Of a stretch of 64,000 nucleotides of DNA, positions 9,789-49,115 are shown piece after piece. Position numbers and translations under genes: made by a program. The notes beneath the pieces are model-generated. The model was given only the letters and a program-made list of their open reading frames with translations. It did not search any database and was not told where the DNA came from. Origin of the DNA: an uncultured Nitrososphaerales archaeon (GTDB lineage Archaea; Thermoproteota; Nitrososphaeria; Nitrososphaerales; Nitrososphaeraceae); NCBI GenBank assembly GCA_963695855.1, contig CAVOHZ010000010.1:1472001-1536000 (forward strand), given 5' to 3'. Numbering within the stretch: the stretch's first letter is position 1; each line of letters opens with the position of its first letter.

Positions 9789-9794
9789 TTCTGT

Positions 9795-10402: not shown

Positions 10403-10452
10403 TTACTGTATTTATAACTTACTATAGTGCTATATCTCTATATATCTACACA

Positions 10453-10920: not shown

Positions 10921-12303
10921 CTATTTTTTATTTTTTATTTTTTTGTACTTTTTTTCTAATGTTCTATATAATTCATTTTCCTGTTTAATTTGCTTGCTTT
11001 GTGCTTCAATATATTCATCGAATTTTTCAGGCTTTTTCTTTCTGTTGTTGGCGTTGGCAAAATCTAGGCTTTCATACTCAACATTTAACGTTTTTGCCCT
11101 TTTCCTATGTTCTTCTGCCAGATTAAATTTCTCTTCAATACTACGTAATTGTTCCTGCAGACTTTGAACCTGAGATTTTACGTCTTCCTGACTTTTTATC
11201 TTGTTTGCAAGTTCTATCTTTTCCAGGCGTTCCCGTTCCACGCTGTTTATTGTTAGCATTGGTTCTACGTACAGATAGTCTGCCTTACGTTCTGGAGTGC
11301 ATTCGAGCAACTGTTTAGTAGTGGGTACGAGATAGGAATTTCTTACACCTGGCATCTTATGGCCTGTAAGTAGATCAGCCCAATCCGGAAGCATACCGCC
11401 TTCATTTACTACCTGAGAAGTGAAGAACTTGCGAAATGCATGAATCATTGCAGTTGGATGTTGCTTTCCTATCATCACTCTTCTGTTCTTTTTATCATAG
11501 GGAAGTTTCTTCTTTAATGGCGAATGCTTCGTTAATAGCTCATTAATCAGATACGATATAGTTGGCCTCTTTATCTTCTGCGGATTCATTACCTTCAGCC
11601 TGTCTGCAGTATTAAACTGTTCCCTTATGAGAGAGCTCGAGTTTTTTAACTCTTCACCGCAATTTTTCCTATATTCTAGGTAAGAATCGATTGCCCTGGC
11701 GCATTCCCTGGAGCAAAATGTTGTATAGGCTTCTTTGAAATCGTTGTAAACTGTTATCTCATATATGCCGTTGTGGTCCTCATTTTTCTTCAGATCTCCC
11801 ATTACCAGGTCAGGCACTGCGCCAAGACGCATACCGTTGGATGCCATCAGTAAGATAGCTACCTTGGTCCTTGGGTCACGCGCATTCTCAAGCATTATCT
11901 GAATCTCTTCAAGCGTGTAGCCTCTATCCTTTCCTTTCTTCGCTGGTCCTGTATCCTCTCCCAAATGGTTCTTAATGCGTTTCCATTTAAATTCAAAATC
12001 AGAATTTTCATAGTAAAAGGCCTTTATGGCACTTAGATAATGATTTGCAGTTTGGTATGTCACCCCCCTCTCCTGGCGCAAATATACCAGGTATGACTTT
12101 ATCTGGATTTCAATGGCGTTTTTGTCCTTTCCTTCCACTAAATCGGCATAATTTCCTTCAGGAATCCCCAGAAATCGCATAAAATCCTTAATAGTCATGC
12201 CATAATCGTCCTTTGTGGCCTTGCTACTCAGGGAATTTATAAAGTTTGCATAGTAAATATCGTGGTTTGTGTGTGTTATTTGTTGGTCCAGAATCCTCTG
12301 CAT
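10921..12303 (-). CDS. Tyrosine recombinase/integrase with C-terminal coiled coil
   Basis: GMRLG, HAFRK, LTGH and SYL catalytic motifs. Confidence 0.93.
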   Translation of the reverse strand: MQRILDQQITHTNHDIYYANFINSLSSKATKDDYGMTIKDFMRFLGIPEGNYADLVEGKDKNAIEIQIKSYLVYLRQERGVTYQTANHYLSAIKAFYYENSDFEFKWKRIKNHLGEDTGPAKKGKDRGYTLEEIQIMLENARDPRTKVAILLMASNGMRLGAVPDLVMGDLKKNEDHNGIYEITVYNDFKEAYTTFCSRECARAIDSYLEYRKNCGEELKNSSSLIREQFNTADRLKVMNPQKIKRPTISYLINELLTKHSPLKKKLPYDKKNRRVMIGKQHPTAMIHAFRKFFTSQVVNEGGMLPDWADLLTGHKMPGVRNSYLVPTTKQLLECTPERKADYLYVEPMLTINSVERERLEKIELANKIKSQEDVKSQVQSLQEQLRSIEEKFNLAEEHRKRAKTLNVEYESLDFANANNRKKKPEKFDEYIEAQSKQIKQENELYRTLEKKYKKIKNKK

Positions 12304-16296: not shown

Positions 16297-16314
16297 AAAC
16301 TTACGTTTTAGAAC
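16297..16314 (+). other. att core 1 (AAACTTACGTTTTAGAAC)
   Basis: Exact reverse complement at 48787-48804. Confidence 0.85.
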
Positions 16315-16356
16315 CGAAGTTGTACCTTAAATTAAAGGATTTCGTATAAAAATGCG

Positions 16357-17688
16357 TTGCAAAAAGCGTCTTACATACCCAAAAATACACCTTATGAGAA
16401 CTTTCTGAACGCAATTCATAGTGATGACAGCAAGATTACGTATGGATATCATTTGAAAGGCTTCCTAAAATTCTGTGATTTTGACAATTACAAACAGTTA
16501 CTCGAGATTTCAGATAAGCAGAAGTTTCAAGCAATAAGGGAGTATATCGACCATAGAATTAACAAGGATAAGGTTTCCTATTCCAGTGTCAACCTGTCAA
16601 CTGCAGCAATAAAGTTATTTTATGAAATTAACGGGGTTGAAAGTATACCCAACTGGAAACAAATAACAAGACTTAAGGGTAAATTTAGACGTGTAGTAGA
16701 TGACGAACTTTATACTGATGAAGAAATAAAGTTATTGCTTGAACATGCTGACTTGACAGAGAAGGTTGCAGTCCTTACTTTGCTAACAAGCGGCATGCGT
16801 GTTGGTGCACTTGCAGGTTTGCGGTATAAAGATATCAAACCTGTGATTTTTAGAGATTTCAAATTTTACAGATTTGTACCTTATGGAGATGACTTAAATG
16901 AAAGGTATGTTACGTTCTGTACTCCTGAATGTGCTTCTATGATAGACATTTATCTCAAACACCGTAAAGAGAAGGAAAATGAGACACTGACAGATGATTC
17001 ACCATTTATCAAACATAAGACAAACTCTGTCTATGGAGTGAAGATGAAGGGGTTTTACAGTTCCAAGGGTCTTCAAAAAATGCTGGAACGTCTGAGATAT
17101 GACGCCAACATTGAAAGTAAGACTGCAGTAGAGTCGGGAAAACATACAGAGTCTGGAAGGATAAGAAAGCGTACAATGCGCGCACATGTTTTTAGAAAGA
17201 TTTTCAATACCAGATGTGTAGAAAGCAATGTTAACCATACTGTAAAGGAATCGTTAATGGGACATAAGGCAGGTTTGGGAATGGACGTGTCCTACTTTAG
17301 AGGAAGTAATATCAAAGAGTTAGCAGAATACTGGAAGGTTGTAGAATCATTAACGATAAGCAGAGAGAACAAACTATCGAAGAGACTCCAGGATAAAGAC
17401 AAGATACTAGAAATCAGACTGAAAGAGAGAGAAGATGAGATACAGGATTTATCTGCAAGAATAGAGAGATTAAGCGAAACAAGAGAACAGGAAATGGAAG
17501 CGGTTAACAGTCTAAAGAGTCAGGTCAAAGAGTTGGTGAAGGAGAAGAACGAGATAGAACGTAATTTTGTTGAAGTCGTACAGCACATACAAACCGGTTT
17601 TACTGACGTCATACAGAAGTCAGACGATTTGAGTAAAGAAGTAGAGAGACTAAAACGCACGAATAAGAAAAAAAGTATAAAAAAATAA
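16357..17688 (+). CDS. Tyrosine recombinase/integrase, intact
   Basis: GMRVG, HVFRK, LMGH, SYF; coiled-coil tail. Confidence 0.95.
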   Translation: MQKASYIPKNTPYENFLNAIHSDDSKITYGYHLKGFLKFCDFDNYKQLLEISDKQKFQAIREYIDHRINKDKVSYSSVNLSTAAIKLFYEINGVESIPNWKQITRLKGKFRRVVDDELYTDEEIKLLLEHADLTEKVAVLTLLTSGMRVGALAGLRYKDIKPVIFRDFKFYRFVPYGDDLNERYVTFCTPECASMIDIYLKHRKEKENETLTDDSPFIKHKTNSVYGVKMKGFYSSKGLQKMLERLRYDANIESKTAVESGKHTESGRIRKRTMRAHVFRKIFNTRCVESNVNHTVKESLMGHKAGLGMDVSYFRGSNIKELAEYWKVVESLTISRENKLSKRLQDKDKILEIRLKEREDEIQDLSARIERLSETREQEMEAVNSLKSQVKELVKEKNEIERNFVEVVQHIQTGFTDVIQKSDDLSKEVERLKRTNKKKSIKK

Positions 17689-17697
17689 AAAAATAGG

Positions 17698-17901
17698 TTA
17701 GAAAGAAGATTCGTCTATTTCCTCCTCGTATCCTAGCGCCCACTCCAAAGCGTGAATTAATCCAGTGATATAATTAAAGTCACGCCTTATTTCAGCAGAT
17801 GTATCCGAATCCGAACCGCTAATGCTAGTAGAATCCTGATGATCTTCCCGTACTTTGTAGTAATGGGATAATTTATCCCTAATTTCTTGTTCTGATTTCA
17901 T
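17698..17901 (-). CDS. Small hypothetical protein downstream of SWIM
   Basis: MKSEQEIRDKL...IHALEWALG; purine-rich RBS upstream. Confidence 0.7.
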   Translation of the reverse strand: MKSEQEIRDKLSHYYKVREDHQDSTSISGSDSDTSAEIRRDFNYITGLIHALEWALGYEEEIDESSF

Positions 17902-17945
17902 GCTCTCACTCTCTTTTAATTTAACTACAGATGTAACATCGGGAA

Positions 17946-18335
17946 TTAAAATGAATAGTCGTCGTTTTCCCAGGACTTGGGTGTTTTTACTATCATTGTT
18001 GTGGATTCTGTTGTTGCTATTACAATATCCTTCTTTACTAGTACGTCAGCAGGTAACTTTGGAACTTCCTTTATCGTATTGAATCTTATCGCGTACTCTA
18101 TCGCATAGAGGTGCTTACATTTCTCGCCTCTTGTCGAATTGTCGAAACATGAGCACCATTCAAACGAGGTAGGTTCAAATCTTACGAAATAGTACCTTCC
18201 GTCACTGCTTTCGGACTCGACATAAAAGGTGTCCTTGTTCTGTAGGCGGTACACTCGGCGGGATAGGGCCAGCACCCTACCCCGTCCTTCTCGTCTATTT
18301 TTCTTCTCAATTTTAGAAACTTCTGTTTGTTTCAT
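17946..18335 (-). CDS. SWIM zinc-finger protein
   Basis: CSCFD...CKH motif. Confidence 0.9.
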   Translation of the reverse strand: MKQTEVSKIEKKNRREGRGRVLALSRRVYRLQNKDTFYVESESSDGRYYFVRFEPTSFEWCSCFDNSTRGEKCKHLYAIEYAIRFNTIKEVPKLPADVLVKKDIVIATTESTTMIVKTPKSWENDDYSF

Positions 18336-18476
18336 ATTTGTAATAATATAATACTTATACTTGATATATAATCATTATGCTATAATACCCTTTAGCATAT
18401 TTCGAGATACTTCCATATACTCCTCTATGTCTACAATATAATCTCTATATTATAGTATAGTTATAATAGTGGTACA

Positions 18477-18635
18477 ATGTTAATAGAAAATGAAGAATTG
18501 GAAAAGAGATCAACTATAGCAATCTCCGATGATTTGCGTAATGCCTTGAAGGATTTAGGTAAGAAGGGTGAGAGTTATGAAGATGTTATCTGGAAACTTG
18601 TAAACTTCTATAATGAGAAACAGCATAAGAAATGA
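18477..18635 (+). CDS. Ribbon-helix-helix regulator (52 aa, not in the ORF track)
   Basis: MLIENEELEKRSTIAISDDLRNALKDLGKKGESYEDVIWKLVNFY...; divergent from SWIM. Confidence 0.8.
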   Translation: MLIENEELEKRSTIAISDDLRNALKDLGKKGESYEDVIWKLVNFYNEKQHKK

Positions 18636-18823
18636 CTACTACTACAATAGATAAAGAAAAGATACAAGAATTGATAAAAAAGTATCAAGAACATATTGAA
18701 GTACTAGAATGTAGAAAACCTGAAGATGTACCTAAACACCTACAATCACTTGCAACTAGTTTTGCGGGGATGGCCTTCAGTTTGAGGTTAATAATCAAAG
18801 ACTTGGAGGAATTATTGAAATGA
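18632..18823 (+). CDS. Hypothetical protein (variable cargo)
   Basis: ATGA overlaps on both sides. Confidence 0.7.
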   Translation: MTTTTIDKEKIQELIKKYQEHIEVLECRKPEDVPKHLQSLATSFAGMAFSLRLIIKDLEELLK

Positions 18824-19080
18824 CTTCCCAAAATAATATTCCAGATGAGAATCAACCATTAGCAGTATTTCCAATACATGAAAGAACACTCTGTTGTATC
18901 GTTCCATGTGAAAGACCTGTAAGTGTCTATGTAACGCTCGATTATAATGTACATGTAAATTTTGGAGCACTTGGAGAACAGCAGCAGATAATGGTTCCAC
19001 TTTGCCAATTTCATTATAATAAAGCATGGAATGAAAATGAAAAAGATTTAGCAAATTCACTGAGTAAAGAAAAGAAATGA
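18820..19080 (+). CDS. Small Cys/His (Zn-binding) protein (variable cargo)
   Basis: CCIVPC...LCQFH; ATGA overlaps. Confidence 0.7.
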   Translation: MTSQNNIPDENQPLAVFPIHERTLCCIVPCERPVSVYVTLDYNVHVNFGALGEQQQIMVPLCQFHYNKAWNENEKDLANSLSKEKK

Positions 19081-20024
19081 CTTCATACAAAAATGCTCCA
19101 ATACGAAAATGGAAGATGGATGAGTTAACCAAAAAACTCAAAGGTATTGAAGAACATGAAGGACGCAAGTTAACCCAAGTGGAAAAGATATATCATATAT
19201 TTGCACATACGTTCAAACATTATGATACTGAAGAAGAAGAAGAAACTAAAGGTGTATCAGCAAGAGAACTTATTTTAATTCTAAATATATCATATGATAA
19301 TTATCCTTATGGTTATGGTAGAAGTAATAAGATAACAACGCAGGACATAACAATGTCTGAAAATGGTTATGATTGGGCTGGTAAGCGTGTATATAAAGCA
19401 GTTCAAAATCTAAAATCAACTATTCAAAGATTTAAGGATTGGCAGGAAGATGGATTTAGTGGTCAATACCAAGATAATGATACTGCATTTAATATCTATT
19501 GTCTAAAAACAAAGAAGGGAAACTGGTACTACTACAACGTAATGAACGATAAAGATTTAGAAAAAATGAAGTTGCACAAAGCAAAAATGGCTTTAGGATA
19601 CCAGAAACATATCAGGAAATTAGATGAAGAATTAGACAAGATTGAATTAAACCCAGAAGAATACAAAAAGAAGAAAGAAAAAGAAGCAGCAGAATTAAAG
19701 AAGCAACAAAAAAGAAGGGTGATAAACACGTATAAACGACTAATGGAAATGGAAGGTAAACTAGGAAGAAAAAGTAGACATGATTATGTAGAAGAAATTA
19801 AAAAAAGATTATCATATATTACTACAAAAGAAGAAGATAATGAAGTTGAATTAGAACTTGAACAATATGCTGCAGAAATAGAAATAAAACAAATGAAAGC
19901 CGATTTGAAGGAACAACAGAAAAAAGAGAAGGAATTATGGGATAAAAAACCGCATGTAGATGTTTCATTGAATAAGAAAATGGAAGAATACGTTATTGAA
20001 GAAAAGGAAGGTAATAAGAAATGA
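19077..20024 (+). CDS. Hypothetical protein with charged coiled-coil C-terminus (variable cargo)
   Basis: 315-aa ORF coupled to the upstream gene. Confidence 0.8.
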   Translation: MTSYKNAPIRKWKMDELTKKLKGIEEHEGRKLTQVEKIYHIFAHTFKHYDTEEEEETKGVSARELILILNISYDNYPYGYGRSNKITTQDITMSENGYDWAGKRVYKAVQNLKSTIQRFKDWQEDGFSGQYQDNDTAFNIYCLKTKKGNWYYYNVMNDKDLEKMKLHKAKMALGYQKHIRKLDEELDKIELNPEEYKKKKEKEAAELKKQQKRRVINTYKRLMEMEGKLGRKSRHDYVEEIKKRLSYITTKEEDNEVELELEQYAAEIEIKQMKADLKEQQKKEKELWDKKPHVDVSLNKKMEEYVIEEKEGNKK

Positions 20025-20105
20025 CTTTTTTTTGCTAGAAAAATAGCAATTTTCTTTGCTATTTTAATCAAAAATATTTTTATTATATTTCTCTATTAAA
20101 ATAAA

Positions 20106-20357
20106 TTGATTGGAGTGACAAGAAATAGTAAGTTTTTTGGTAATTATACCAGAACAGATCCAACGAACATTGTTAGAACTATGCAACTGTCCGAACAGAC
20201 GTTTCAGATGTTGAAAGAGCATGCTTCCCGGTATTACTCAACTCCCTCGTATGATGAAGTGCTTGTTAATCTGGTAAAGTTCTATGAACAGCACGAGGGT
20301 GCAAAACATTACACTCATTATAACAGTATCAATGCTAATATTGTGACTATCGATTGA
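20106..20357 (+). CDS. Small RHH-like protein
   Basis: TMQLSEQTFQMLK...SYDEVLVNL; homologue at 8756-8979. Confidence 0.7.
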   Translation: MIGVTRNSKFFGNYTRTDPTNIVRTMQLSEQTFQMLKEHASRYYSTPSYDEVLVNLVKFYEQHEGAKHYTHYNSINANIVTID

Positions 20358-20450
20358 CTAACTAACCAACCAATAATTAAATTAATTAAATAAATTAATA
20401 AAAAATAAAATAAAAAAAATAAAAAAAATTGATGATTATATTTAGGGTGG

Positions 20451-21131
20451 TTATCCTATAATGAATTCAACTCCTGCGTCTTCAAGACATTCTATCAAAT
20501 CATCAACAACTTCTGGATCTACACTAGGTAGAGCCAACCTGAAAGCATCTTCAGGAATGACTGATCCATCTTCAGGATTAACAAATAGTATACAAAATCG
20601 TTCGATCGATTCAACTCCAAATAGTTCTACAAAAGTGGTAATTTCGTCTGGAGATAGAAATTCTTCAAAACATTCTTCACATGTTCTTTGTGGAGTACTA
20701 GTTCTTATCTGTTCATTCGCATTAACATTTACACATATATTTACCAGGTTCTTGTTGAAGTTTATTTTATCGAAGCCATTTCCATTTTGTGCGTTTGCTG
20801 CGTCTGGACCTGCTTGTTCGTTTGCTGCTGCAGTAGCAGTAGTGTCTTCAGGTATTTGGGTAATATCTATACCATTTACATTTATGTTACTGTTAACACA
20901 GGATATTTTCTGGATGTCTGTATGAGAACTCTTTTTTTGATGGTTATCGTCATAACTATATCTATTGTCGTCATGGTAATAGTTATTGTCGTATCCGTAT
21001 TCATTGGCGTACAATTCCGCTTGTGCGTTTTCTATCATTGATGGGTTTAGAGCCAGCAATCCTGTCGCTAGTATTGCTCCTAGTATAGAAGCAAAAACTA
21101 TCTTTTTGCTGTTGTTATTACTATTGCTCAA
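20451..21131 (-). CDS. Secreted surface protein (LNPSMIENAQA family)
   Basis: Signal peptide, Tyr/Asp-rich linker and Cys pairs; paralogue at 7447. Confidence 0.85.
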   Translation of the reverse strand: MSNSNNNSKKIVFASILGAILATGLLALNPSMIENAQAELYANEYGYDNNYYHDDNRYSYDDNHQKKSSHTDIQKISCVNSNINVNGIDITQIPEDTTATAAANEQAGPDAANAQNGNGFDKINFNKNLVNICVNVNANEQIRTSTPQRTCEECFEEFLSPDEITTFVELFGVESIERFCILFVNPEDGSVIPEDAFRLALPSVDPEVVDDLIECLEDAGVEFIIG

Positions 21132-21467
21132 TACATTGTTAAATACGAATTTATTATATCTATGGTTGGAAGGAACATTATCTAATCTTGTAATATTTCA
21201 ACATTCTGAATGATTGACTATAAGAAGAATAGCAATTGATCTACAAGTATAATATGAAAGAAAATTAGATATTAATACCATTAGTTGAGATAAAGAATGA
21301 ATATTCACCTACTATTGTGTATATCATCTGCCAACAATGACAGGAAAATTAGTAGTGTTGCCATAACTATAGATAGTAAAAATAATTACTAATTACTAAT
21401 CCTTTCATTTTTTTATTTAGTTACGAACTGAAAAAACAACGTACAAAAAAATAAAAAATAAGAATTA

Positions 21468-22148
21468 TTAAGAGTACTGTTTGTTCTGTTTCTGGACATC
21501 TGCATCTTTCCTTTCCTGCTGTTGCTTCTTATCGTACTCGTATCGTGGAGGCCCACCATTATACATTATCATAGTTATACATTCATCCCATGAAGAATTA
21601 ACAAACTGTTCAAAAGTAAATGAATCATTACGAATTGTTGGAGTTTTTACTAAAAACTTGATTTGATCTTTGTTATCATAAGTGGATTTTGCTATGATGT
21701 CATCAACCGCTTTCTTGCTGAATGGTACGTAGTAGACTTCATGCTGTCCTGTTCTATCGTATCCTATTATCTGGTCTCTCTCTATTACGGGCTCTAACTC
21801 CTGCTCCCAGTACTTGCCCTCTACATGATCTGCCACCGGTGCTACTTTACGGCCTTGCCAGTCCTTCCCATACCAATTCTCGAACCAGTAAAGGAATTCT
21901 TTCATCTCCCTTCTCTTAGAATTATAGTCAATTGCTCTAATGCGTACTATCCTCGTTATTTCTTTCTCTACTGGATACTTTTCTGCATCAACCAACATCA
22001 AAAAATGCTTGTTTTGATAATCTAGGTGCTCTGGAACGTCAAGACCATTCTTCCTGTAACTTTCTTCTGTTCTGTTATTCCAACCCTTCAAAATATCGGG
22101 TACTTTTTTCTTCTTTTGTTCTACGGGTACTGCTACTCTTCTAGCCAT
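21468..22148 (-). CDS. Conserved element protein of unknown function (226 aa)
   Basis: Closely similar, intact copy at 56656..57330. Confidence 0.9.
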   Translation of the reverse strand: MARRVAVPVEQKKKKVPDILKGWNNRTEESYRKNGLDVPEHLDYQNKHFLMLVDAEKYPVEKEITRIVRIRAIDYNSKRREMKEFLYWFENWYGKDWQGRKVAPVADHVEGKYWEQELEPVIERDQIIGYDRTGQHEVYYVPFSKKAVDDIIAKSTYDNKDQIKFLVKTPTIRNDSFTFEQFVNSSWDECITMIMYNGGPPRYEYDKKQQQERKDADVQKQNKQYS

Positions 22149-22262
22149 AATAACCTCTTACTAATTCTTATCTTAGTCTTGAGAATATTTAAATGTATAT
22201 GTATATCTGTTTTGACAGCAAGACGGCAATCATTATAAACATGGAAATGAATATTAAATTAT

Positions 22263-22466
22263 ATGGCAACAAGTCAACAACTAATAATGAAGGAAGAAGA
22301 ACAGGAGGAGGAGGGGATCAGTAAGACCACGATTAGATTACCAGACGAGATGTTAAGGGAATTGAAACATTTAGCCATAGATGATAGGAAAACCTTGACA
22401 GAGTTAGTTACTGAAGCATTAAGCGATTATCTGAAAAAGAGAAAAAAATTAGCACAAAATAAATGA
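22263..22466 (+). CDS. Ribbon-helix-helix (CopG/ParG-like) regulator
   Basis: KTTIRLPDEMLRELKHLAIDDRKTLTELVTEALSDYL. Confidence 0.88.
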   Translation: MATSQQLIMKEEEQEEEGISKTTIRLPDEMLRELKHLAIDDRKTLTELVTEALSDYLKKRKKLAQNK

Positions 22467-22828
22467 ATTCTTGTTATTGAAAATTTAAGTAGTCAGAACT
22501 TAATAATATTAATACCACTGGCAATCTCTGTAGTGAGAAAACTAGTTCCGTTGATGAAAAGAATATCAGGCCTGCGTCCGACCGATATTCTAATATCATC
22601 ATCGTAGTACACGTTTTACCACTATCTAGAGTGTGTGGGCTCATTCAGTGGTGTTGGAGGGAGAAAGAAACAAATAATGAATGAATATCTGGTTGGTCAT
22701 TCGCTCCATGATGATGATTGACGGATATCTGAATATTTGTATTCTTTGTTGTAATCCTTCCATCTCTCTCTCCAACGGTTATTATTAGACAAAAAATTGG
22801 TATCTTTATGTTTCTTGTTGTATGTAGG

Positions 22829-23308
22829 TTATCCTTCTTCGTTTGTTGATTCGTATCTTATCAATCTTGATCCTTTCTCTAGATGTCTTCTAACATCTGG
22901 GTCGTCTTCCAGATTTACCCTATTTAATCTCCTGTTAATAGTCTTTAACTTTCTAGGCTTGATAAAGTGTTCTACCGTTAGCCTTTTGCTGTCGTATATC
23001 GTTTCTTGGACGTCTCTGATGCCTGCTATCTGAGATTCCTGTTTGGCGTGTACCGTTGCCACTATTAGGCCACAGCGATAGCACTGTACCCAGTTCTCAG
23101 AATCTTGGGGTTTATCACCGTTAATAAGTTCTGAATCATGATAGATACGTTCCTTTAGTACATTATAATGTCCATAAGATTCACAATTAGGACAGTAACT
23201 ATGAGAGAAGTCTTCGCTATCTGAGTAATAATAATTGTTATCAGCAGTAGTTACAAAATAATCTCTTCTCTTTTTAATTCCAGGCATATATCTTCTATTG
23301 TTCTCCAA
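22829..23308 (-). CDS. Zinc-ribbon protein
   Basis: CPNC...CYRC; homologue at 55479..55964. Confidence 0.8.
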   Translation of the reverse strand: MENNRRYMPGIKKRRDYFVTTADNNYYYSDSEDFSHSYCPNCESYGHYNVLKERIYHDSELINGDKPQDSENWVQCYRCGLIVATVHAKQESQIAGIRDVQETIYDSKRLTVEHFIKPRKLKTINRRLNRVNLEDDPDVRRHLEKGSRLIRYESTNEEG

Positions 23309-23976
23309 TCATGCATGATATAGCCGCAATCCCAACACTGTAACCAGTCATAAGAGTCCTGTGGTAATTCGCCATTAATTAATTCCTCTTTTCTGTATAG
23401 ACGGGGAATTAATTGAACATGAATTCCTGCTTCTAGACAACGAGGACACCAACTTGTTTCACTTTCCTTACAATTTCCTGGCATTTATCTATCCACCTCT
23501 TTATCACTCCCTCAGTATCACACCTCTTAAAGATAAACGTAAGGAGTCTAAAAAATCTGAGTATATGGTGATATTCTTGTCAAGATCGAACTCGGTACCG
23601 TACGCAGATTTTAAGGATAGTATCAGTTTCTGGTACTTGGGATCTATTGCAATCTTCTTCTTTGATAGAAGATTATATGTCCATTCTAACATTGATTTGT
23701 GATTTTTTTGAAAGGAAATAGGAATAATATAATTATCATAAATTGATACGTCTTCGGATCTTTCCCATGTTAAAGATTCCCCGAACCTGGATTTTAATTC
23801 GTTGGTGAAACCTCTATTGGCAGAATCTACGAAAAACAGGCAGTTGGGTATCTGTGTATGTATTTGAAATATTCTGTCCGCCACGACTGAAGGACTTGCC
23901 TTATCATGTTCTTCCGATAGTATGACCCTTACTACCTGGTTCTCTAAATCTATCTCACAAACGGTTATGGCTGTAA
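23244..23976. repeat. 733-bp near-identical inverted repeat, partner 54811-55543
   Basis: Covers the terL nuclease half and the zinc-ribbon gene; I spotted one substitution (Y/H codon). Confidence 0.92.
23251..23484 (-). CDS. Small zinc-ribbon protein
   Basis: CPRC...CWDC; GAGGTG RBS. Confidence 0.8.
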   Translation of the reverse strand: MPGNCKESETSWCPRCLEAGIHVQLIPRLYRKEELINGELPQDSYDWLQCWDCGYIMHDWRTIEDICLELKREEIIL

Positions 23977-24928
23977 TAGACGAACTAAAGCCTGGATCAA
24001 TACCTGCAGGATGCAGACATCCATGATTGATAGGCAACTCGCTGTATTGCACACCTAACTGGACCGCTGTATCGATATCCTGCAAACTGAAGATATTGCC
24101 TATACGACCCTGGTATTTGAGACAGTATTCACGTTCAAAGTATGCCTCATTCTTTTCTCGTTCAATGAAAGCAGAATCGTATATCTTGTTAAGGCCTACA
24201 GTATAATGGAGGAATATTTTATGAAAGAAGTCTTTGAATATTTCGTTTCTCTCTATACGATCAAATAATCCTAATGGTTTATTCGGTGTACTTGCCACTA
24301 TAATTTTACACTTGCTTTTCTCCTCGTATGCCTTGATAACATATTCTAGTTCAAATTGTTCTGCAGGATCAAAAAAGTCAGCCTCATCAATGAACAGATA
24401 AGAAACGTCCGTGTAGCCTCTAAGGTCCTGTATTCTCTTCGTAGGAAATACCTTAATCCAGGTTTTGCCTAGCATTAATTCCGTGTACTTGGATTCAAAA
24501 TGAACATTAGGAAAATTGCGTTCAAATAAATTCTCTAATCTAATCTTTATGTTATTACTGAAATCTTCCCGTGTCCCAGATACCAAAAATATAGACTTAC
24601 CATGTAGTTTGTCAGAAGATAAACAGGACCACGCCAAATAGCGTAAAATCAGAGTTGTGAGGCCTATACCCCTAGCCTTTTTTACCCCTACATGCTGATT
24701 CCCTTCGATTGCATCAATGATATCTTTTTCATAGGAAAAAAGTGGGTATTCCTTGTTATTCTTGAGTGGCCATCCAATCAGACAATTAAAACAATCATCA
24801 ACATGGTTATGATTTTCGATTTCAAAATAGAAGGGTTTACCTTTGAATATCTCTAATTGGATAGGTTCAGCCGATTCAGCGAAACCTATTGAAAGAACAT
24901 CACTTGCCTTCTTGAAGCAGTTCAGCAT
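23504..24928 (-). CDS. Terminase large subunit-like protein (ATPase + RNase H-fold nuclease)
   Basis: KKARGIGLT Walker A, FIDEAD Walker B, ASTP motif, FEREY, GIDPG nuclease motif. Confidence 0.9.
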   Translation of the reverse strand: MLNCFKKASDVLSIGFAESAEPIQLEIFKGKPFYFEIENHNHVDDCFNCLIGWPLKNNKEYPLFSYEKDIIDAIEGNQHVGVKKARGIGLTTLILRYLAWSCLSSDKLHGKSIFLVSGTREDFSNNIKIRLENLFERNFPNVHFESKYTELMLGKTWIKVFPTKRIQDLRGYTDVSYLFIDEADFFDPAEQFELEYVIKAYEEKSKCKIIVASTPNKPLGLFDRIERNEIFKDFFHKIFLHYTVGLNKIYDSAFIEREKNEAYFEREYCLKYQGRIGNIFSLQDIDTAVQLGVQYSELPINHGCLHPAGIDPGFSSSITAITVCEIDLENQVVRVILSEEHDKASPSVVADRIFQIHTQIPNCLFFVDSANRGFTNELKSRFGESLTWERSEDVSIYDNYIIPISFQKNHKSMLEWTYNLLSKKKIAIDPKYQKLILSLKSAYGTEFDLDKNITIYSDFLDSLRLSLRGVILRE

Positions 24929-25356
24929 GTTCTAGTTTTGCCTTTATCTGTGCTATGACTGGTGTACCCAGACTTAGTTCCTGCAGCAGTTTAACATTCT
25001 CTCTAATTTCATATCTCAATTTCATTATTAATTCTTGATTCTTTACATGCGTAGGTTTATTTTGTTCTAAGTAATCACGAATTGTATCATTCTGTACCAT
25101 CTCAACCACTTCAATTATTTGCTGATGCTTGACTACAAAGCCGACTCTGGAAAAGTAGGACATCCATTGATTGGCGTACTGCCCTGAATCTACCTGTTTC
25201 TTCCTGCGGTAATATGTCTCTACTGATATCTGCTTTCCAAGTCTGGCATGTATGTATGTATGCTAAGGCTTCTTTCTCAGATAAACCGTAATTTACGGTA
25301 TCCGCTACCAATGGCATAAGTATTTGTTTCTCTTTGGCTGTGAAACTTCCTCCCAT
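24900..25356 (-). pseudogene. Small-terminase candidate, frameshifted by an extra 4-bp unit in an (ATGT)n tract at 25248-25262
   Basis: Removing 4 bp restores colinearity with 53417..53872. Confidence 0.8.
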
Positions 25357-25397
25357 TTACTTCGTCTGCACCTCGTACCTTGACAAATTAACTGTTA

Positions 25398-26480
25398 TCA
25401 TTTTTTATTTAAATATTCAATCAGTTTTTCCCTACGCATTGGCGGGATTTGTTTGTTCGCTGCAATCTGTAACGCTCTCTTTATTCTGTGGTTGTAATTG
25501 ACTGATCTATCCAACTTTTCCATTTCATTGCATTTGTCTAACCACTCTCTAATTATTTTAAATGATTTCTCAAATTCCTTTTTCTTGACTACTATAAGGT
25601 AAGGTGCTAAGACAAGATCAATCGTTCGCTTTCTGCAATCTTTAATTGGTGCATTTAATAACTTTTCAATCCATTCATAATAATTTGAATCAAATAAATT
25701 ATTTGGTTTACGATTTTTCCATATTTTTTCATCTTCTAATCTTTTGTTTAATTTCTTCTTGATTAGATAACCTTGGAATTCTATTATTAACGCCTTGGTT
25801 ACTCTGGGCCTTATACCATTCCACTTCTGCAATATCTTAACCTGTTTATTACGTTTGTAGTTTATGGAGCCTGGGATCCTTAACAAGCAGGACCTAAAAG
25901 AAGGATTGTGTGACTTGTCCGCTTTACCATTCGATAGAAAATCTTTATAGAATCTTAGGAATTGTTCAGAAGGCTTATCGCCGTATTCGTTGAATTCCTT
26001 GATTCCCTCCAAGGCGGGACATTCTACTGGCTGTATTACATGGTATCCGCCCCCGCTGTGTAGGACCGTAGGGCTAGCCGAATCGCCTAACCATTCTTTG
26101 ATATTCTTCAAGGTTCTATCAAGTGCAACCCGTAAACTTTTACAAGATTTGAAACCTTGTAAATCTAAATCTATGAATATTAAATCAGGTTTCCAGAATA
26201 AACCCCCTGTTTTCAGGTCCGAATAGTAAAAGGCGTTAATTCTGCAATCTTCATAATTGGATTCTTTAAAGTAGTCTAACGCTTGTTCTTTCGAATTAAC
26301 TTCTTTCTGCACCATTGTTTTAGGAGTCATTATGGTTCTTGGGAATACTGGACTCGAAAAATGGGATAAAAGAAAGTCTAAACCCTGTGAAGGTGTGAAG
26401 GGTGTGAAGGCCCCTAGGATAGGGGGGTAGGTGTTTTTAGAACTTTTTTGTTCTATTTTTGCAGCAGAAGCAGTGGTCAT
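25398..26480 (-). CDS. AEP-superfamily primase with PriX-like C-terminal domain
   Basis: FIDLD, HSGGGYH, LRIPGSIN; WIEKLL...DCRKR...LAPYL tail. Confidence 0.85.
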   Translation of the reverse strand: MTTASAAKIEQKSSKNTYPPILGAFTPFTPSQGLDFLLSHFSSPVFPRTIMTPKTMVQKEVNSKEQALDYFKESNYEDCRINAFYYSDLKTGGLFWKPDLIFIDLDLQGFKSCKSLRVALDRTLKNIKEWLGDSASPTVLHSGGGYHVIQPVECPALEGIKEFNEYGDKPSEQFLRFYKDFLSNGKADKSHNPSFRSCLLRIPGSINYKRNKQVKILQKWNGIRPRVTKALIIEFQGYLIKKKLNKRLEDEKIWKNRKPNNLFDSNYYEWIEKLLNAPIKDCRKRTIDLVLAPYLIVVKKKEFEKSFKIIREWLDKCNEMEKLDRSVNYNHRIKRALQIAANKQIPPMRREKLIEYLNKK

Positions 26481-26845
26481 TCCCAGGGATTCCCCCTAGG
26501 TACCAGTTGTGATTTACGCCAAGGTTTTTCATTTACAACAATAAATAATTCTGTTCTGTTTAAGTCTTCGATATACTGCAGGGATGGATGTAACGGTTGT
26601 TTAGGGTGATTGCTATGACAGTGTCTATTGTAATCGTATAGGGTTATGAACTCACTATTGAAACTTGGACAGTTTTGATGGTGACACCTTAACCTTTTAC
26701 CTTCCTTCAAGTGTTCAAGAATCTTTTGTCTGTTCTCAGAATCAAGATAACCATAACTAAAGAATGAAGGTGCTCCTGCTTCCCTTTCCCTTGCAGATAA
26801 TTCCTTCTTTTGCTTGGGTGTTAGTGTCAACGTAGGATTTACCAA
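26477..26845 (-). CDS. C2H2 zinc-finger protein
   Basis: CHHQNC...RHCHSNH; homologue at 51629. Confidence 0.82.
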   Translation of the reverse strand: MVNPTLTLTPKQKKELSAREREAGAPSFFSYGYLDSENRQKILEHLKEGKRLRCHHQNCPSFNSEFITLYDYNRHCHSNHPKQPLHPSLQYIEDLNRTELFIVVNEKPWRKSQLVPRGNPWE

Positions 26846-28789
26846 GGTGGACTACCCTCCCGCCATTCGCCTTTCTCCCCAAATTGATAGTGTATCTCAT
26901 CCGCCGCTTCGGCTCCCTCGTCACTTTTTTCAAAATCAGGGGTACCCCCTTCCTCAGATGTCTTCACACTATTCACGCCTTCACCTTCCTCTTCGGGCTC
27001 TGATTCTGACTCTTCATCATCATCTTCTGATTCTTCTGATGATGATTGAGTATGATTGAGTAGTTGTTGTTGTTATTTCCTTAACAATTATTCTGGTTTT
27101 ATCATTCTCTATATCCGACTTTACCAGTTCCTTAATTACGGTACGGTCAAATACCAAGATGTTTCCTTTATCGCCATGCTTTATACTTGCACCAAAGCAA
27201 TCACAAACCATGCCGGATATCGTTGTCCTGTATAAAGTCCCATAATCGTCTGTATGAAATTCATTAGGCTTATGCAGGTCTGGCAGTCCTGGAATCTCGT
27301 TGATTATTGCCTTCCAAAAGTCTAGAGAAGATACTTGATTCGTATTCTCGGTTAATTTATCAATTATTGGCAGTAGAACGGATTCGATTGATGATTGTTT
27401 TTTATTATTCTTGATGTCCAAAAATGTTTGGAGCGTCTCAACTACTTCATTCTGACATTTGCATCCATGAAAGAGTTGGACGCAGTATTTTACAAGTTGC
27501 CTATCCCTTCCTTCAACTCCTATATCTAAATCTGGAATCATCTCCTTGAAATGCATTAATCTGTAAACCAGCAACAACTTTCGAAAGTTCATAATCTCCT
27601 GCAGCAATCTCTTATTATCGGGTCCGCCTGTGTTAGTAGGATTCAGGACTTCCAGGATATCATGTTTTATACTTCCCTTGAAACAGTTGATAGAAAAGAT
27701 TCTCGAATTAACACCTTTTGCAATTGATTGATTCAGTGACCTTTCAGATATAATTATTTTAGGACAGTATGTAAAGTGGCGTTCAGATTTTGATGTGTAT
27801 TGGTTGATTTTAGGAGTCCATCCTCCATATGAGAAACCCGTCTTCAATACTGCCATTAATTCAGGCGACTTGTCTATCTTGTCAGCCTCTTCCAGTACCA
27901 TGGTACACTGCATAGACTCCACCATTCCTAGCGATCTAAATAAGTTGGGTGCGCTTGGGTCTGTCATTACTGCGGCCCTATACGCTAACCCCCTAAGTGT
28001 CTCTGCAATAGACGTCTTACCGCTTCCATTACCACCAACCAGATAAAGATAATGAGTTGTTGAGAACCTATCTTGAAAGTGTGAGGTGATTATGTTTATT
28101 GCTATTAATTTTAATTTGTGTGGTAACTGGTTGTTATATCTAGAAACTATTTTGTAACATGTCTTATAGAGATAATCTCGGTCTATGTCGTTATCTTCAA
28201 TGAACCTGGCGATACCGTTAATCTCATCCAGACTATCAAATTCATAAGGTAAGTGTGGACATTCTTCTATTGCCGGAGGTACTAGGATTCTAGTGGCCTC
28301 TTCTATCTTATCAATTCCTTCAAATGTTCCTGTATTATTGTTGAATCTTATGTATGTCGCGAATCCTGCAATAAACACAGATTCATGCAGTTCACCTCTT
28401 CCCATCTCGGAGTATTTGAAAGTTGAAATGAGTTGCTTTGGTTTTTCTTCGTCTTCCTCTTGTGTCTGTTCTTTAGACTTATTATTACTAGTGTTATTAG
28501 GAGATGTTAAAATATCCTCATTATCGTTCAGGAATCTGTAAAATATTGACCTCTGTGTCTTATCGGTGTACCCATATACCTGGGCTTGGTCCCACACTAT
28601 CTTGATATTACGTGGCCAATCATCTATTATCGGTGTAAATACTATATCGGCGTTTATCTTTCCATTTAATGATATTTTTACACGGTTTCTATCAGGATAA
28701 TAAAACCCCTCTTTAATCAATTCGCTATTCTTGACTTCTGGACTTTGCTTTAATTCTCTAACGTTATTATTTTCTTCGTTGGTAGTCAA
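26839..28789 (-). CDS. P-loop ATPase / putative replicative helicase; acidic tail frameshifted by a 10-bp duplication at 27043-27062
   Basis: GGNGSGKT Walker A, VLEEAD Walker B; the tail in the alternate frame matches the end of the B copy (YQFGEKGEWREG). Confidence 0.8.
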
Positions 28790-29043
28790 CTGAAAAACAC
28801 CCCTTCTAGTAGCGCTTTACCAGACATGATTTCGTAATTGTACTTTATTCCGCTATCTTTACAAACCCAACACGGACATTTGGACCTGGTAATTATTGTC
28901 TTTCTACTACCATTGTTAGTTTCTTGTGTAAACTGACTTACTTTAGGTAAGTTTAATAAATTGTTTTGGGTATCAATAATCACAAGTTCGCCATTACTCG
29001 TTTGTCCACTGGATTTCTTGCCAGTGGCCTTTTTTATCCTCAA
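28786..29043 (-). CDS. Small Cys-cluster protein (CPCWVC), first gene of the replication operon
   Basis: Homologue at 49456..49674; GGAGG RBS. Confidence 0.75.
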   Translation of the reverse strand: MRIKKATGKKSSGQTSNGELVIIDTQNNLLNLPKVSQFTQETNNGSRKTIITRSKCPCWVCKDSGIKYNYEIMSGKALLEGVFFS

Positions 29044-29049
29044 ATTTTG

Positions 29050-29161
29050 TTACGCCCTCCGACCGATAATATTATGTCTAACAGTGTACCTAATCATCGG
29101 TTGACCTAGGACCAGCAGAGCCAACGATAATCCTAGGCCGCCGGAGGGGGTGCTAGCGTAA
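29050..29161 (-). promoter_or_regulatory. Putative structured RNA leader sequestering the RBS
   Basis: Covarying stems with G-U pairs relative to 49341-49451. Confidence 0.6.
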
Positions 29162-29358
29162 TAAATTCGCAAATATTTGCATTTTTTGACATTTTTTGAC
29201 ATTTTTTGACGAACAATTGCAGCACAATCGCAAAATACAGTACAAACCTTTAAAGGTGAATTTTTACTATCTTTCATTGACGTTCACTTCTGGTAGCGGT
29301 GCCGGTTGCTGTCGTCGTCCGTTGTTGCTGTCGTGCGTTCGCTTCGAATCACGATATT

Positions 29359-29389
29359 GGCTTTGGCCGAGGTAATGGGCGGCCAAGCC
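29359..29389 (-). promoter_or_regulatory. Conserved bulged hairpin with CCATTACC loop
   Basis: Four compensatory pair changes relative to 49116-49149. Confidence 0.65.
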
Positions 29390-29406
29390 TTCTTTTAATA
29401 ATATTA

Positions 29407-29593
29407 TCATCCTTTACTTTCAGTCTCCAATGGTTTTGATGTTTTCTCTAAAAGTTGGAGTTACAACATCATTCAAACTATCCTATGATGTTCCCATGTT
29501 TCTGAGTCTTTGAAAATTTATATCGTCTACAAGTATGTGATGCGTTTTTTTATTATGTTTTGTTTGTTGAGAAGTAGTAATAATCGTACTCAT
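29407..29593 (-). pseudogene. RHH regulator pseudogene
   Basis: HILVDDINFQRLRNMGTS*DSLNDVV; homologue of 48911..49099. Confidence 0.75.
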
Positions 29594-29683
29594 AGTTAAA
29601 AATATTAAGAAGTAACTTACTTATTAATTATAGTTTTTGATTGATTTTTTGTCTATTTACCCATGTTAGGGGTACAAATTTCA

Positions 29684-29697
29684 GTCACAATCTATAA
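29684..29697 (+). other. att core 2 (GTCACAATCTATAA)
   Basis: 13/14 match to the reverse complement of 60458-60471. Confidence 0.75.
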
Positions 29698-49099: not shown

Positions 49100-49115
49100 T
49101 AATAATTTATAAAAC

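Follow-up and report, generated by a model that had tools for sequence, protein, structure and literature searches.

The window, a 64,000-nucleotide stretch from the 3.55-Mb amoA-positive genome of a soil ammonia-oxidising archaeon, holds three collinear copies of an integrative element that carries genes for both terminase subunits and none recognised for a capsid or portal, namely element A (16297..29697), element B (48787..60471) and remnant C (3409..12303). On balance, we read these elements as satellites of tailed viruses resembling the virus contig G041, now mostly inactivated, that would have depended on such a helper, and they are good candidates for the first satellites of archaeal tailed viruses. 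The positions of the three copies in the first-pass annotation agree with the ORF lists, with a tblastn map and with a blastn comparison of A and B, which gave seven collinear blocks of 66-85% identity. A, B and C are real members of a family that is, however, far larger than the three copies first reported, as the host genome has 12 TerL loci and one further locus where only fragments of TerS remain, every one of them on contig C10. An element can be described as a tyrosine integrase, a plasmid-like replicon and a putative packaging module (TerS, TerL, zinc ribbon, RHH and c226), of which the module is constant while integrase types (at least two) and replicon types vary between copies.

Gene content of the elements

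The gene order first annotated for A could be confirmed. It starts with a tyrosine integrase of 443 aa (16357..17688, +; Pfam PF00589, E-value 1.2e-7; phrog_1, 3.3e-16), followed by a SWIM-like zinc protein (17946..18335, −), which is kept in A, B, C and copy R10 and is split or fragmentary in R2 and R4, and a small DUF7557/VapB-antitoxin-like protein (18477..18635, +; PF24434, 3.1e-8), originally called RHH. Two genes of variable cargo come next. One encodes a highly charged 315-aa protein (19077..20024, +) that is not part of the core, occurs in A only (a single tblastn match in the genome) and has no family match in Pfam or PHROG; the other encodes a 226-aa protein (20451..21131, −) of a multi-copy family (36 tblastn matches in the genome), which may be secreted, judging from its hydrophobic N-terminal segment.

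The constant module of A comprises c226, a conserved protein also of 226 aa (21468..22148, −) with homologs in the G041-like viruses, a CopG-type RHH protein (22263..22466, +; PF01402, 5.7e-7) between c226 and the zinc ribbons, the zinc-ribbon protein Zn159 (22829..23308, −) with its small paralog Zn77 (23251..23484, −), a TerL of 474 aa with every catalytic motif intact (23504..24928, −) and a TerS gene (24900..25356, −) broken by a 4-nt (TACA) slip, its homolog in B being intact. As in satellites, there is a replication module of its own, consisting of a primase with a C-terminal PriX domain (25398..26480, −; PF18689) and a P-loop helicase-like protein of 589 aa (27020..28789, −) with homologs in B and R11; in other copies, by homology, a D5-like primase-helicase (D5_N/DUF5906) or an MCM takes this role. 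A C2H2 zinc-finger protein (26477..26845, −) and an 85-aa CPCWVC protein (28786..29043, −) complete the order. Among the earlier domain calls, the PriX part of the primase holds (Pfam, 5.8e-9), whereas SWIM (0.0069) and the helicase P-loop (AAA_21, 1.8e-4) fall below the Pfam cut-offs.

Element B, which is inverted relative to A, has a helicase (49671..51632, +) with an in-frame TAG at 50553-50555, a C2H2 protein (51629..51994, +), a primase (52236..53357, +), an intact TerS of 151 aa (53417..53872, +) with a 29-nt overlap with the TerL start and homologs upstream of TerL in viral contigs, a TerL of 479 aa (53844..55283, +), Zn77 and Zn161 (55303..55964, +), a c226 homolog of 224 aa (56656..57330, +), a SWIM-like protein (58320..58664, +) and an integrase (58999..60406, −) split by a 34-nt tandem duplication (60107-60174). 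Remnant C retains TerL pieces (3364..5786, +) interrupted by an IS (DDE transposase, 4294-5187), as well as a SWIM-like gene (+) and an integrase (−) within 10453..12303.

The identity of TerL is borne out by PHROG_2 (E-value 4e-22) and by a profile of 24 TerLs against T4 gp17 (E-value 3.7e-4), the alignment of which spans both Walker motifs and the C-motif. In 24 TerLs, among them bona fide viral ones, there is no variation in a deviant Walker A (K84-x2-G87-x-G89), in Walker B (D181-E182), in the C-motif (S213-T214-P215) and, within the putative RNase-H-like nuclease at the C-terminus, in the acidic residues D311, D368, D458 and D461. The deviant Walker A is presumably comparable to that of lambda gpA. 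An AF2 model of TerL (pLDDT 86.7) predicts a beta-beta-beta-alpha-beta order from residue 306.

Spread, selection and damage

The elements are 11-15 kb in size and their hosts are Nitrososphaeraceae ammonia oxidisers. The module was found again in G012, which represents another species of the genus, with the same order of helicase, primase, TerS, TerL, Zn, RHH, c226 and integrase, and on soil metagenome contigs, of which L074, L076 and L081 repeat the element gene order and L078 and L011 do so in part. Across these species and metagenome loci, which keep the capsid-less layout, TerL identity is 44-68%. Of 24 other genomes of the genus, 14 have the TerL family, compared with only two of 16 outside it, both with weak matches. 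Copy R6, the most intact-looking one outside the window, lacks c226 and Zn159, so the constant module is not universal. By gene content, the elements fit the thaumarchaeal cryptic integrated elements, being integrase-bearing islands and not a provirus, casposon, ICE or IS, although, as its authors define it, this class lacks a signature gene (Krupovic et al., 2019, PMC6563490).

TerL, TerS and c226 are under purifying selection, dN/dS being 0.17 both for TerL (R6-R10) and for c226 (A-R4) and 0.10-0.14 for TerS. In most other pairs, synonymous sites are saturated, at a pN of 0.1-0.4. In the TerL phylogeny, the element sequences form one group apart from 32 TerLs with portal or capsid neighbours, and the ten element TerLs make up, together with the TerL of G041, a set of 11 rows with an SH-aLRT of 99.

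As for the ends, the integrase side of A begins with an 18-nt att repeat, AAACTTACGTTTTAGAAC (16297..16314, +), the sole other genome copy of which is inverted at 48787-48804, and continues with a 24-mer (16316..16339, +), a conserved integrase-proximal end that is identical and inverted at 60424-60447 in B. The distal end of A (29670..29697, +) consists of a conserved 13-mer, GGGTACAAATTTC, and a 14-nt att repeat, GTCACAATCTATAA (29684-29697). In B, the distal end (48787..48823, −) has the 18-nt repeat and the same 13-mer, while the 14-nt repeat is found inverted and with one mismatch at 60458..60471 (−). Each of these small integrated islands has an integrase and att repeats, but the 18-nt and 14-nt repeats at the four ends do not flank the elements one by one, as had been proposed; instead, the left end of A is paired with the left end of B, and the right end of A with the right end of B. 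In addition, a tract of about 740 bp in TerL/Zn77 of A (23250..23985) is ~100% identical to B (~55546-54811), its flanks having 50-66% identity. From the cross-element pairing and this tract, either A and B arose by reciprocal recombination or the assembly has the intervening 31-kb segment in the wrong orientation. In the former case, the two inverted copies would have swapped halves across the identical tract, which would leave each with mismatched att ends.

A and B both carry inactivating lesions, namely the frameshift in the TerS gene of A and, in B, the nonsense codon in the helicase gene and the duplication in the integrase gene. Most copies in the host genome are dead or dying.

Viral counterparts and shell genes

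The nearest viral relative of the element TerLs is that of G041, a contig of 55,024 bp with direct terminal repeats (CheckV 100%), which in phmmer matches three element TerLs with E-values of 1e-133 to 1e-136 and that of A with 3.5e-94, at an identity of up to 49%. G041 belongs to a group of four tailed-virus contigs of 40-60 kb from IMG/VR (G041-G044), all of which have homologs of TerL, the zinc-ribbon protein and c226, G041 being the one contig compared for the TerS match; its 517-aa portal-position protein is common to G042, G043 and G044 too. The gene directly downstream of TerL in these viruses is the counterpart of Zn159 (phmmer 8.7e-11 for G041; 3.1e-8), and the G041 homolog of c226 has an E-value of 1e-35. 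Between the zinc-ribbon gene and c226, the G041-like layout has a portal-scaffold-capsid block, with a 246-aa protein in capsid position showing a weak match to Phage_capsid_4 (0.0018, below cut-off). The elements lack this block and all tail genes.

When 18 G041 proteins were searched, element matches were found for TerS, TerL, Zn and c226 only; as in satellites, the putative morphogenesis genes have relatives in the presumed type of helper. A PF00589 integrase is missing from G041, as is any match to the primase or helicase of the elements, so the remainder of an element is non-viral. A tail-fibre-like protein of G041 has weak matches elsewhere in the host genome. The GC content of G041 is ~43% (over the 11.6-kb L073 part) versus ~31% for the host, a gap which suggests that G041 probably infects a different host and is related to any real helper rather than being the helper itself.

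The first-pass annotation had recognised no capsid or portal inside A or B, and profile, cluster and viral-protein searches of the elements and the genome were likewise all negative. PF05065 and PF04860 had no matches in the host genome, nor did the portal, capsid and tail proteins of Nvie-Pro1, a provirus of Nitrososphaera viennensis (FR725450.1). The ORFs of 44 viral contigs gave clustered matches in the genome at TerL/TerS loci only. In the viral contigs, portal (phrog_9232), major head (phrog_267/544/10) and tail (phrog_290) genes lie downstream of TerL, with the portal cluster in 38 and the capsid cluster in 21 of the 44 viral loci; neither cluster occurs in any element locus. The elements have no conserved ORF of portal size, and no helper provirus or G041-like structural gene was found in the host genome. 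It is worth mentioning that HMMs from marine-type viruses miss even the portal and capsid of G041 itself, such archaeal virus proteins being too divergent, which limits the power of the negative shell-gene searches. A Caudoviricetes provirus, with an HK97-fold capsid and a portal within the element, was set aside on these negative searches, with the same limit on sensitivity.

A model of c226 (pLDDT 84, pTM 0.76), the fold of which had been marked for checking, matches no capsid, portal or jelly-roll structure (Foldseek best E-values 0.16 in PDB and 0.019 in BFVD, TM ≤0.19). Homologs of c226 number only 15 among 5.8 billion proteins.

Interpretation and known systems

With a complete terminase and accessory genes and no shell, the elements would load a plasmid-like genome into helper procapsids. 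Infection by a G041-like helper would lead to excision of the element, which its own primase and helicase would replicate; its TerS would mark the element DNA, which TerL, together with the zinc-ribbon protein and c226, would load into procapsids of helper origin, and tails from the helper would finish the particle. Held more tentatively, these could be the first satellites of archaeal head-tailed viruses, with a strategy undescribed in any domain, in which a complete terminase and two accessory morphogenesis genes (zinc-ribbon protein and c226), acquired as copies from the lineage of the helper, serve, in the absence of a shell, for self-loading into G041-like procapsids.

What stands of the satellite reading as first put forward is a stable, capsid-less, terminase-bearing integrative lineage, supported by the other species, the soil contigs, selection, the single TerL group and the viral counterparts. 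The earlier argument, that two diverged copies share a gene set enclosed by intact ends, fails, the ends being swapped and both copies lesioned. The reading is weakened in that no copy here is demonstrably functional: TerL is full-length and uninterrupted in only four of 12 loci, the TerS gene of A and the helicase and integrase genes of B are broken, and the att ends are mismatched.

In bacteria, satellites and islands often serve in defence as well, and it has some, rather low, probability that the elements are integrative plasmids keeping a viral terminase for a use other than their own transmission, be it interference defence, by cutting or mis-packaging the DNA of G041-like viruses, or concatemer resolution. 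Their variable, plasmid-like replicon and integrase beside a constant terminase module, in a genome where many copies have decayed and no helper was found, are in keeping with this. However, TerS, TerL, zinc ribbon and c226 are kept together and are all common to the morphogenetic region of one virus group, which fits use of the whole packaging pathway, and the ATPase motifs are conserved, as are those of the putative nuclease; interference also does not preclude transmission as a satellite.

We consider it improbable that the elements are relics of ordinary G041-like or Nvie-Pro1-like proviruses which lost their structural genes, with a layout shared by descent from already-defective copies. 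The integrase and replication genes have no source in G041, and the capsid-less layout has persisted across species and metagenomes with purifying selection on TerL, TerS and c226 during divergence and with a TerL group apart from TerLs beside portals or capsids, even though one deletion could turn the viral order TerS-TerL-Zn ... c226 into that of the elements, most copies here are visibly decaying and NitKor-E1, a single TerS-TerL element, was interpreted as probably a relic (Krupovic et al., 2019, PMC6563490). It is very improbable that the elements are autonomous viruses of a type not yet recognised, with a shell protein among the uncharacterised ORFs. The sole conserved candidate, c226, is confidently modelled, matches no known fold and has few homologs, which would be in keeping with this. 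However, c226 coexists with separate portal-position and capsid-position genes in G041-like viruses and is lacking in R6, and TerL-type packaging needs a portal, for which the elements have no conserved ORF of suitable size.

Taken as satellites, the elements resemble PICI/SaPI, P4 and PLE in being small, in having an integrase, their own replication initiator or primase-helicase and a TerS (used there to redirect packaging), and in lacking capsid and tail genes. Those satellites, as described, use the TerL of the helper (10.1101/2022.09.08.507074), whereas the elements bring their own and have an archaeal host and no sequence relationship to them; the PICI comparison is an analogy and not membership. 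The cf-PICIs also have their own TerS and TerL, and the separation of their TerL clades from phage TerLs was interpreted as pointing to a lineage that is old and stable (10.1101/2022.09.08.507074). In that account, they have their own genes for capsid, protease, portal and connectors, and tails are all that they steal, whereas none of these genes was found in the elements by the searches above, which places them outside the cf-PICIs. Among the satellite classes that it covers, none joins TerS and TerL without a capsid, so the mechanism proposed here would be without precedent.

In archaea, pSSVx/pSSVi and the haloarchaeal SRCE likewise combine a plasmid-derived replicon with an incomplete set of viral morphogenesis genes, pSSVx and pSSVi being, by the statement of the preprint describing this, the only archaeal satellites known before it (10.1101/2025.02.15.638363). 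Unlike the elements, they exploit spindle-shaped viruses and encode an AAA+ ATPase, a spindle-virus capsid protein or both, with no terminase or head-tailed helper in that description. Nvie-Pro1, from the same host family, has a TerL 43% identical to that of B, but its portal, protease/capsid, tail and baseplate genes follow directly after TerL and it has no annotated integrase or replicon (FR725450.1).

NitKor-E1 of Ca. Nitrosopumilus koreensis AR1 is like the elements in being integrated in an ammonia-oxidising archaeon and in having a tyrosine integrase and adjacent TerS-TerL with, as described, no other head-tail gene; it was called an "enigmatic" cryptic integrated element (Krupovic et al., 2019, PMC6563490). 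Compared by description, NitKor-E1 is a single case, whereas the elements form a multi-copy, multi-species family which, beyond what is described for it, has a defined replicon, zinc-ribbon and c226 partners and an identified viral counterpart, and thanks to this counterpart the satellite-helper pair would, if the reading is true, be directly testable.

Element gene content and the terminase

The genome of this ammonia oxidiser (G000) comprises 3.55 Mb in 11 contigs, with ~31% GC and a completeness of 99.9%, and the window corresponds to G000:C10:1472001-1536000; it has an archaeal amoA gene, and its nearest public relatives carry the label Nitrososphaeraceae. Element A (16297-29697) encodes, from left to right, a tyrosine integrase (PF00589, 1.2e-7; phrog_1, 3.3e-16), a SWIM-like protein (SWIM match under Pfam's cut-off), small DUF7557/VapB-like and RHH proteins, a 315-aa charged protein, a 226-aa member of a multi-copy family (read as secreted from its hydrophobic N-terminal segment alone), a conserved 226-aa protein (c226), an RHH protein (PF01402, 5.7e-7), the zinc-ribbon paralogues Zn159 and Zn77, the large terminase TerL, a split small terminase TerS, a primase with a PriX domain (5.8e-9) and, lastly, C2H2, P-loop helicase-like and CPCWVC proteins. 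Element B (48787-60471) has the same gene series in the opposite orientation, with seven collinear blocks of 66-85% identity to A by blastn. The remnant C is reduced to integrase and SWIM-like genes, cargo and a TerL into which an IS (DDE transposase) has inserted. A conserved small element gene, the 199-aa ORF of B (57484-58083), possesses three perfect 87-nt tandem repeats (29 aa each) at 57569-57830 and its homologue in copy R6 has two, so that repeat number varies among elements. Solo Zn77-type genes also occur away from any TerL (G000:C8:278759-278965, C8:303053-303259, C10:687819-688073 and C10:1670812-1671054).

TerL is a genuine and, judged by its motifs, apparently competent large terminase. 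It had no match in a Pfam search but matches PHROG_2 (E 4e-22). A profile of 24 TerLs, undoubted virus contigs included, matches T4 gp17 (E=3.7e-4) through the Walker A, Walker B and C-motif, while a smaller profile of 4 sequences had no match at 0.01 among PDB sequences. Residues K84, G87, G89, D181, E182, S213-T214-P215, D311, D368, D458 and D461 are invariant in all 24, and the AlphaFold model is confident (pLDDT 86.7). Upstream of TerL in B is a 151-aa gene with a 29-nt overlap, homologues of which lie directly upstream of TerL in 14 viral loci; this position and these homologues justify the name TerS.

TerL is mosaic, the ATPase half of A being an outlier and the last ~160 residues being identical in A and B. 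In the phylogeny that the first-pass annotation had called for, 10 element sequences group on one side of a branch, apart from 32 TerLs with portal or capsid neighbours, and the element TerLs together with that of the viral contig G041 form a set of 11 rows with an SH-aLRT of 99. Both trees were 'quick' searches without bootstraps; the first took in a helicase (L081_1097) recruited through a shared zinc domain, which was removed for the second. Given such trees and the mosaic nature of TerL, branching within the element group should not be over-read. In copy R2 (G000:C10:478547-481033, locus L008) similarity to TerL ends at about residue 343 and the ORF continues to 828 aa, closing with a C2H2 finger similar to the one in the R6 helicase, making this a chimeric fusion gene.

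The lack of a recognisable capsid, portal or tail ORF, noticed at first reading, was borne out by Pfam, tblastn, clustering and provirus searches of limited sensitivity. Pfam Phage_capsid and Phage_portal had no match anywhere in the genome, positive controls being matched, and all ORFs of 44 TerL-bearing IMG/VR loci gave clustered tblastn matches at TerL/TerS loci only. All-against-all clustering identified a portal family (one member matching phrog_9232) in 38 of the 44 viral loci and a capsid family (phrog_267/544/10) in 21; element loci, whether of this genome, of other genomes or of metagenomes, had neither family. The described provirus Nvie-Pro1 has a TerL 43% identical to that of B, whereas its portal, capsid and tail proteins had no match in the genome. 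With HMMs derived from marine-type viral loci (37 portal and 17 capsid sequences) there was no match in the genome and also none in G041; as these models miss this virus's own proteins, their sensitivity is low, which limits the reach of the shell-gene negatives.

Two ORFs of A had been singled out as possible structural genes. The 315-aa protein (19077..20024) is unique to A, occurring nowhere else in the genome, and so cannot be a core structural gene. The other, c226 (21468..22148), is the sole conserved element ORF of capsid-like size. Its model is confident (pLDDT 84, pTM 0.76), with long antiparallel strands and helices, and resembles no structure in PDB or BFVD (best E 0.16 and 0.019, TM <=0.19); ESM Atlas gave no usable match. 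A predicted TerL-c226 complex scored 0.00 without controls, which weighs neither for nor against contact.

Family size, selection and element ends

Of the three collinear copies first proposed, A, B and C were all confirmed, but the family is much larger. By tblastn with every A and B protein, the genome has 12 TerL loci and one locus with TerS fragments only, all on contig C10. TerL is uninterrupted and full-length in four of the 12, namely A, B, R6 (C10:1299886-1301334) and R10 (C10:1699540-1700871). The TerS of A is broken by a 4-nt TACA slip, while in B the helicase has a CAG to TAG change (50553-50555) and the integrase is split by a 34-nt tandem duplication. Elsewhere in the family the tyrosine integrase can be of another type (~530 aa), as can TerS; the PriX primase and helicase can give way to MCM or to a D5_N/DUF5906 primase-helicase, and the cargo can include an N6/N4 DNA methylase. 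R6 is without c226 and Zn159. The differences in integrase, TerS, replicon and cargo show that modules can be exchanged. About 5 kb from the TerS-TerL pair of R10 lies a gene for an HNH endonuclease whose C-terminal part is an HTH (L092 8276-9355; G000:C10:1693276-1694355); in some phages, proteins of the HNH type serve as packaging partners.

The order helicase, primase, TerS, TerL, Zn, RHH, c226, integrase is also found in another species of the genus (G012), with TerL 68% and c226 65% identical to those of A. In metagenomes, the same helicase-to-integrase order was found in contigs L074, L076 and L081 and part of it in L078 and L011. Among 24 further genomes of the genus, 14 have the TerL family; outside the genus only two of 16 genomes gave a match, weak in each case. 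L011 is a 2.7-kb contig with a family TerL (61% identity) and c226, binned as a Candidatus Brocadia (anammox) MAG, an assignment which is probably a binning error. Values of dN/dS were 0.17 for TerL (R6-R10), 0.10-0.14 for TerS and 0.17 for c226 (A-R4), synonymous sites being saturated in most other copy pairs. Neutral evolution of TerL across copies, named at the outset as a refuting condition, is not seen. As nonsynonymous differences are far fewer than synonymous ones, the copies are separate arrivals of long-diverged, selected lineages. Simple prophage decay was already considered unlikely, and the recurring order, low dN/dS and separate TerL group argue that the elements are not prophage debris.

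The att-like sites said to bound A and B are real integration scars, although they pair across the copies and not within each. The exact 18-mer of 16297-16314 occurs twice in 3.55 Mb, the second time inverted at the integrase-distal end of B (48787-48804), and the 14-mer at the distal end of A (29684-29697) recurs inverted, with one mismatch, at the integrase-proximal end of B (60458-60471). Inward of these repeats both elements terminate alike, in a 24-mer on the integrase side and a 13-mer on the opposite side. That the 18-mer is a conserved internal end instead of an att site was rejected, since cross-pairing gives clean direct repeats (18/18 and 13/14) and within-copy pairing only ~9/18. 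A and B are essentially identical over a 740-bp tract that covers Zn77 and the last ~160 TerL codons, identity being 50-66% on either side of it. The simplest reading is that a pair of elements, both bounded by a matching direct repeat of their own, would have integrated ~20 kb apart in inverted orientation and then recombined within this tract, so that the ~31 kb lying between the crossovers became inverted. The alternative is that the assembler took a wrong path through the 740-bp inverted repeat. Public sequencing runs comprise 20 DNA rows, all as contigs (best share 0.42), with no RNA listed; four of them gave short pieces only over 14500-31500, none of them bridging and none spanning a joint at the element ends, uncovered parts being uninformative. 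The MoaA gene left of A is present in 15 of 20 relatives searched, but its neighbours in five stretches of relatives around this gene (L068-L072; L067 adjoins on the same contig) differ from those here, and neither an empty attB nor the ancestral orientation can be read there. Under inversion and misassembly alike, A and B as drawn are reciprocal chimeras. The ends first taken as intact are therefore cross-paired, and both elements carry the broken genes mentioned.

The elements are flanked by ordinary host genes (MoaA, molybdopterin oxidoreductase, a P-II-like protein and an MBL-rhodanese protein), and no tRNA gene was found in a search of the window. A 15-nt unit is repeated head to tail at least 24 times at 1090-1595; its copies, mostly 99% identical, give open frames in which the pentapeptides LFELL / NCYCL recur. 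Another array, of ~15 copies of a 54-nt unit (18 codons), occupies 40589-41611 in the host DNA that separates A from B and is probably a gene for a repeat-containing surface protein. CRISPR arrays with a 30-nt repeat lie at G000:C8:550855-551594, C10:1185516-1186327, C8:583941-584158 and elsewhere. A comparison of 39 unique spacers, drawn from arrays of three repeat types, with the genome and all the loci analysed here gave no match to an element or viral locus. One spacer (C8:551214-551251) aligns over 37/38 nt at 92% identity (BLAST E 0.006) to C3:303179-303213 of the same genome, possibly a self-target or another integrated element.

A viral counterpart and a proposed helper-dependent scheme

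A scan of IMG/VR with the c226 alignment found one contig, G041, of 55,024 bp with direct terminal repeats (CheckV 100%). Its TerL matches three element TerLs at 1e-133 to 1e-136 and that of A at 3.5e-94 (phmmer), with at most 49% identity, and it has a TerS homologue, a match tested in this contig only. Directly after TerL is a 138-aa zinc protein homologous to Zn159 (8.7e-11), followed by proteins of 517, 263, 443 and 153 aa, a 246-aa protein across the terminal repeat, a c226 homologue (1e-35) and then tail-fibre and minor-tail genes. Against PHROGs and Pfam, the structural region gave tail-fibre, minor-tail and weak Phage_capsid_4 matches only, the last with the 246-aa protein (0.0018, under the cut-off). 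In ESM Atlas the 443-aa protein resembles phage clusters of protease/scaffold type (YonD_N, DUF2213 and Mu-like_Pro), which is a lead only. Three further contigs (G042, G043 and G044; 40-60 kb, two rated complete) have TerL, zinc protein, 517-aa protein and c226 in the same order; two complete viruses that are more distant lack c226.

The four packaging genes have counterparts in G041, which contains neither a PF00589 integrase nor a match to the element primase or helicase. By gene content the elements are accordingly chimeras, in which an integrative plasmid-like backbone is joined to precisely the four genes that, in one virus group, stand to either side of the portal-to-capsid block. The other proteins of G041 have no match in G000, save weak tail-fibre-like matches elsewhere in it, and its GC of ~43% (over the 11.6-kb part L073) suggests another host.

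The most likely working of the elements, as we infer it, is a helper-dependent scheme of five steps. A helper would trigger excision by the element integrase, perhaps with RHH proteins; the element primase and helicase would replicate the element; TerS would recognise element DNA; TerL would translocate it into helper procapsids, while Zn159 and c226, as their gene position in viral genomes suggests, may act at the terminase-portal or head-completion step; and helper tails would complete the particle. Such a design fits satellite logic, keeping own-DNA specificity and procapsid access and borrowing shell and tail. The elements, at 11-15 kb, have about one quarter of the length of a helper genome of 55-60 kb. 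Their concatemers could conceivably be packaged by a headful mechanism. Counting against the satellite reading are the absence of a helper from the genome, the GC of G041, the lack of c226 and Zn159 in R6 and the fact that most copies are dead; excision and packaging are steps that we infer only. Overall, the first-pass observation holds in part, and the PICI-like satellite interpretation is partly supported. The finding is richer than three copies implied, as it now includes a candidate helper lineage together with a conserved interface of four genes, and less clean than claimed, as the copies in the window are recombined and damaged.

Relation to known systems

Ammonia-oxidising archaea drive soil nitrification, and to our knowledge almost nothing is known of parasites of their viruses. 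The family is best filed as a satellite-like cryptic integrated element. It gives a concrete, testable satellite-helper hypothesis and, if true, a new answer to the satellite problem, namely to bring the motor and steal the shell, with the uncharacterised small proteins c226 and Zn159 as candidate terminase or procapsid partners.

The archaeal satellites listed as previously known in a 2025 preprint (10.1101/2025.02.15.638363) are pSSVx and pSSVi only, both of spindle-shaped viruses. A 2026 preprint proposes a circular Asgard satellite of a 3.8-kb class without terminase, and a 2026 survey of archaeal proviruses kept elements with viral hallmarks only and is not known to discuss such islands. 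As described, cf-PICIs possess TerS and TerL alongside a full capsid set and classical PICIs rely on the TerL of the helper (10.1101/2022.09.08.507074); in the elements here no shell gene was found, and they have their own TerS and TerL.

A contig of a Nitrosopumilales MAG (L018) has two TerS2-TerL pairs 9 kb apart (1871-4097 and 11083-13112, the second fragmented) and nothing belonging to the viral portal-protein cluster; this marine order may likewise have TerS-TerL islands without a capsid, as with NitKor-E1. The latter is the one thaumarchaeal element reported by Krupovic et al. 2019 (PMC6563490) with integrase and TerS-TerL only, and its terminase was called enigmatic and probably a relic. 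Nitrosocosmicus is absent from the main text of that paper, whose list of 74 elements may include further TerL-bearing ones. A full-text literature search for terminase-bearing capsid-less satellites gave nothing closer. NitKor-E1 is thus the closest precedent, a single, unexplained terminase-bearing element without shell genes, whereas here the 2019 oddity becomes a defined multi-copy family with a conserved four-gene packaging set and a named viral group carrying that set (TerS in G041 only) around its portal-capsid block.
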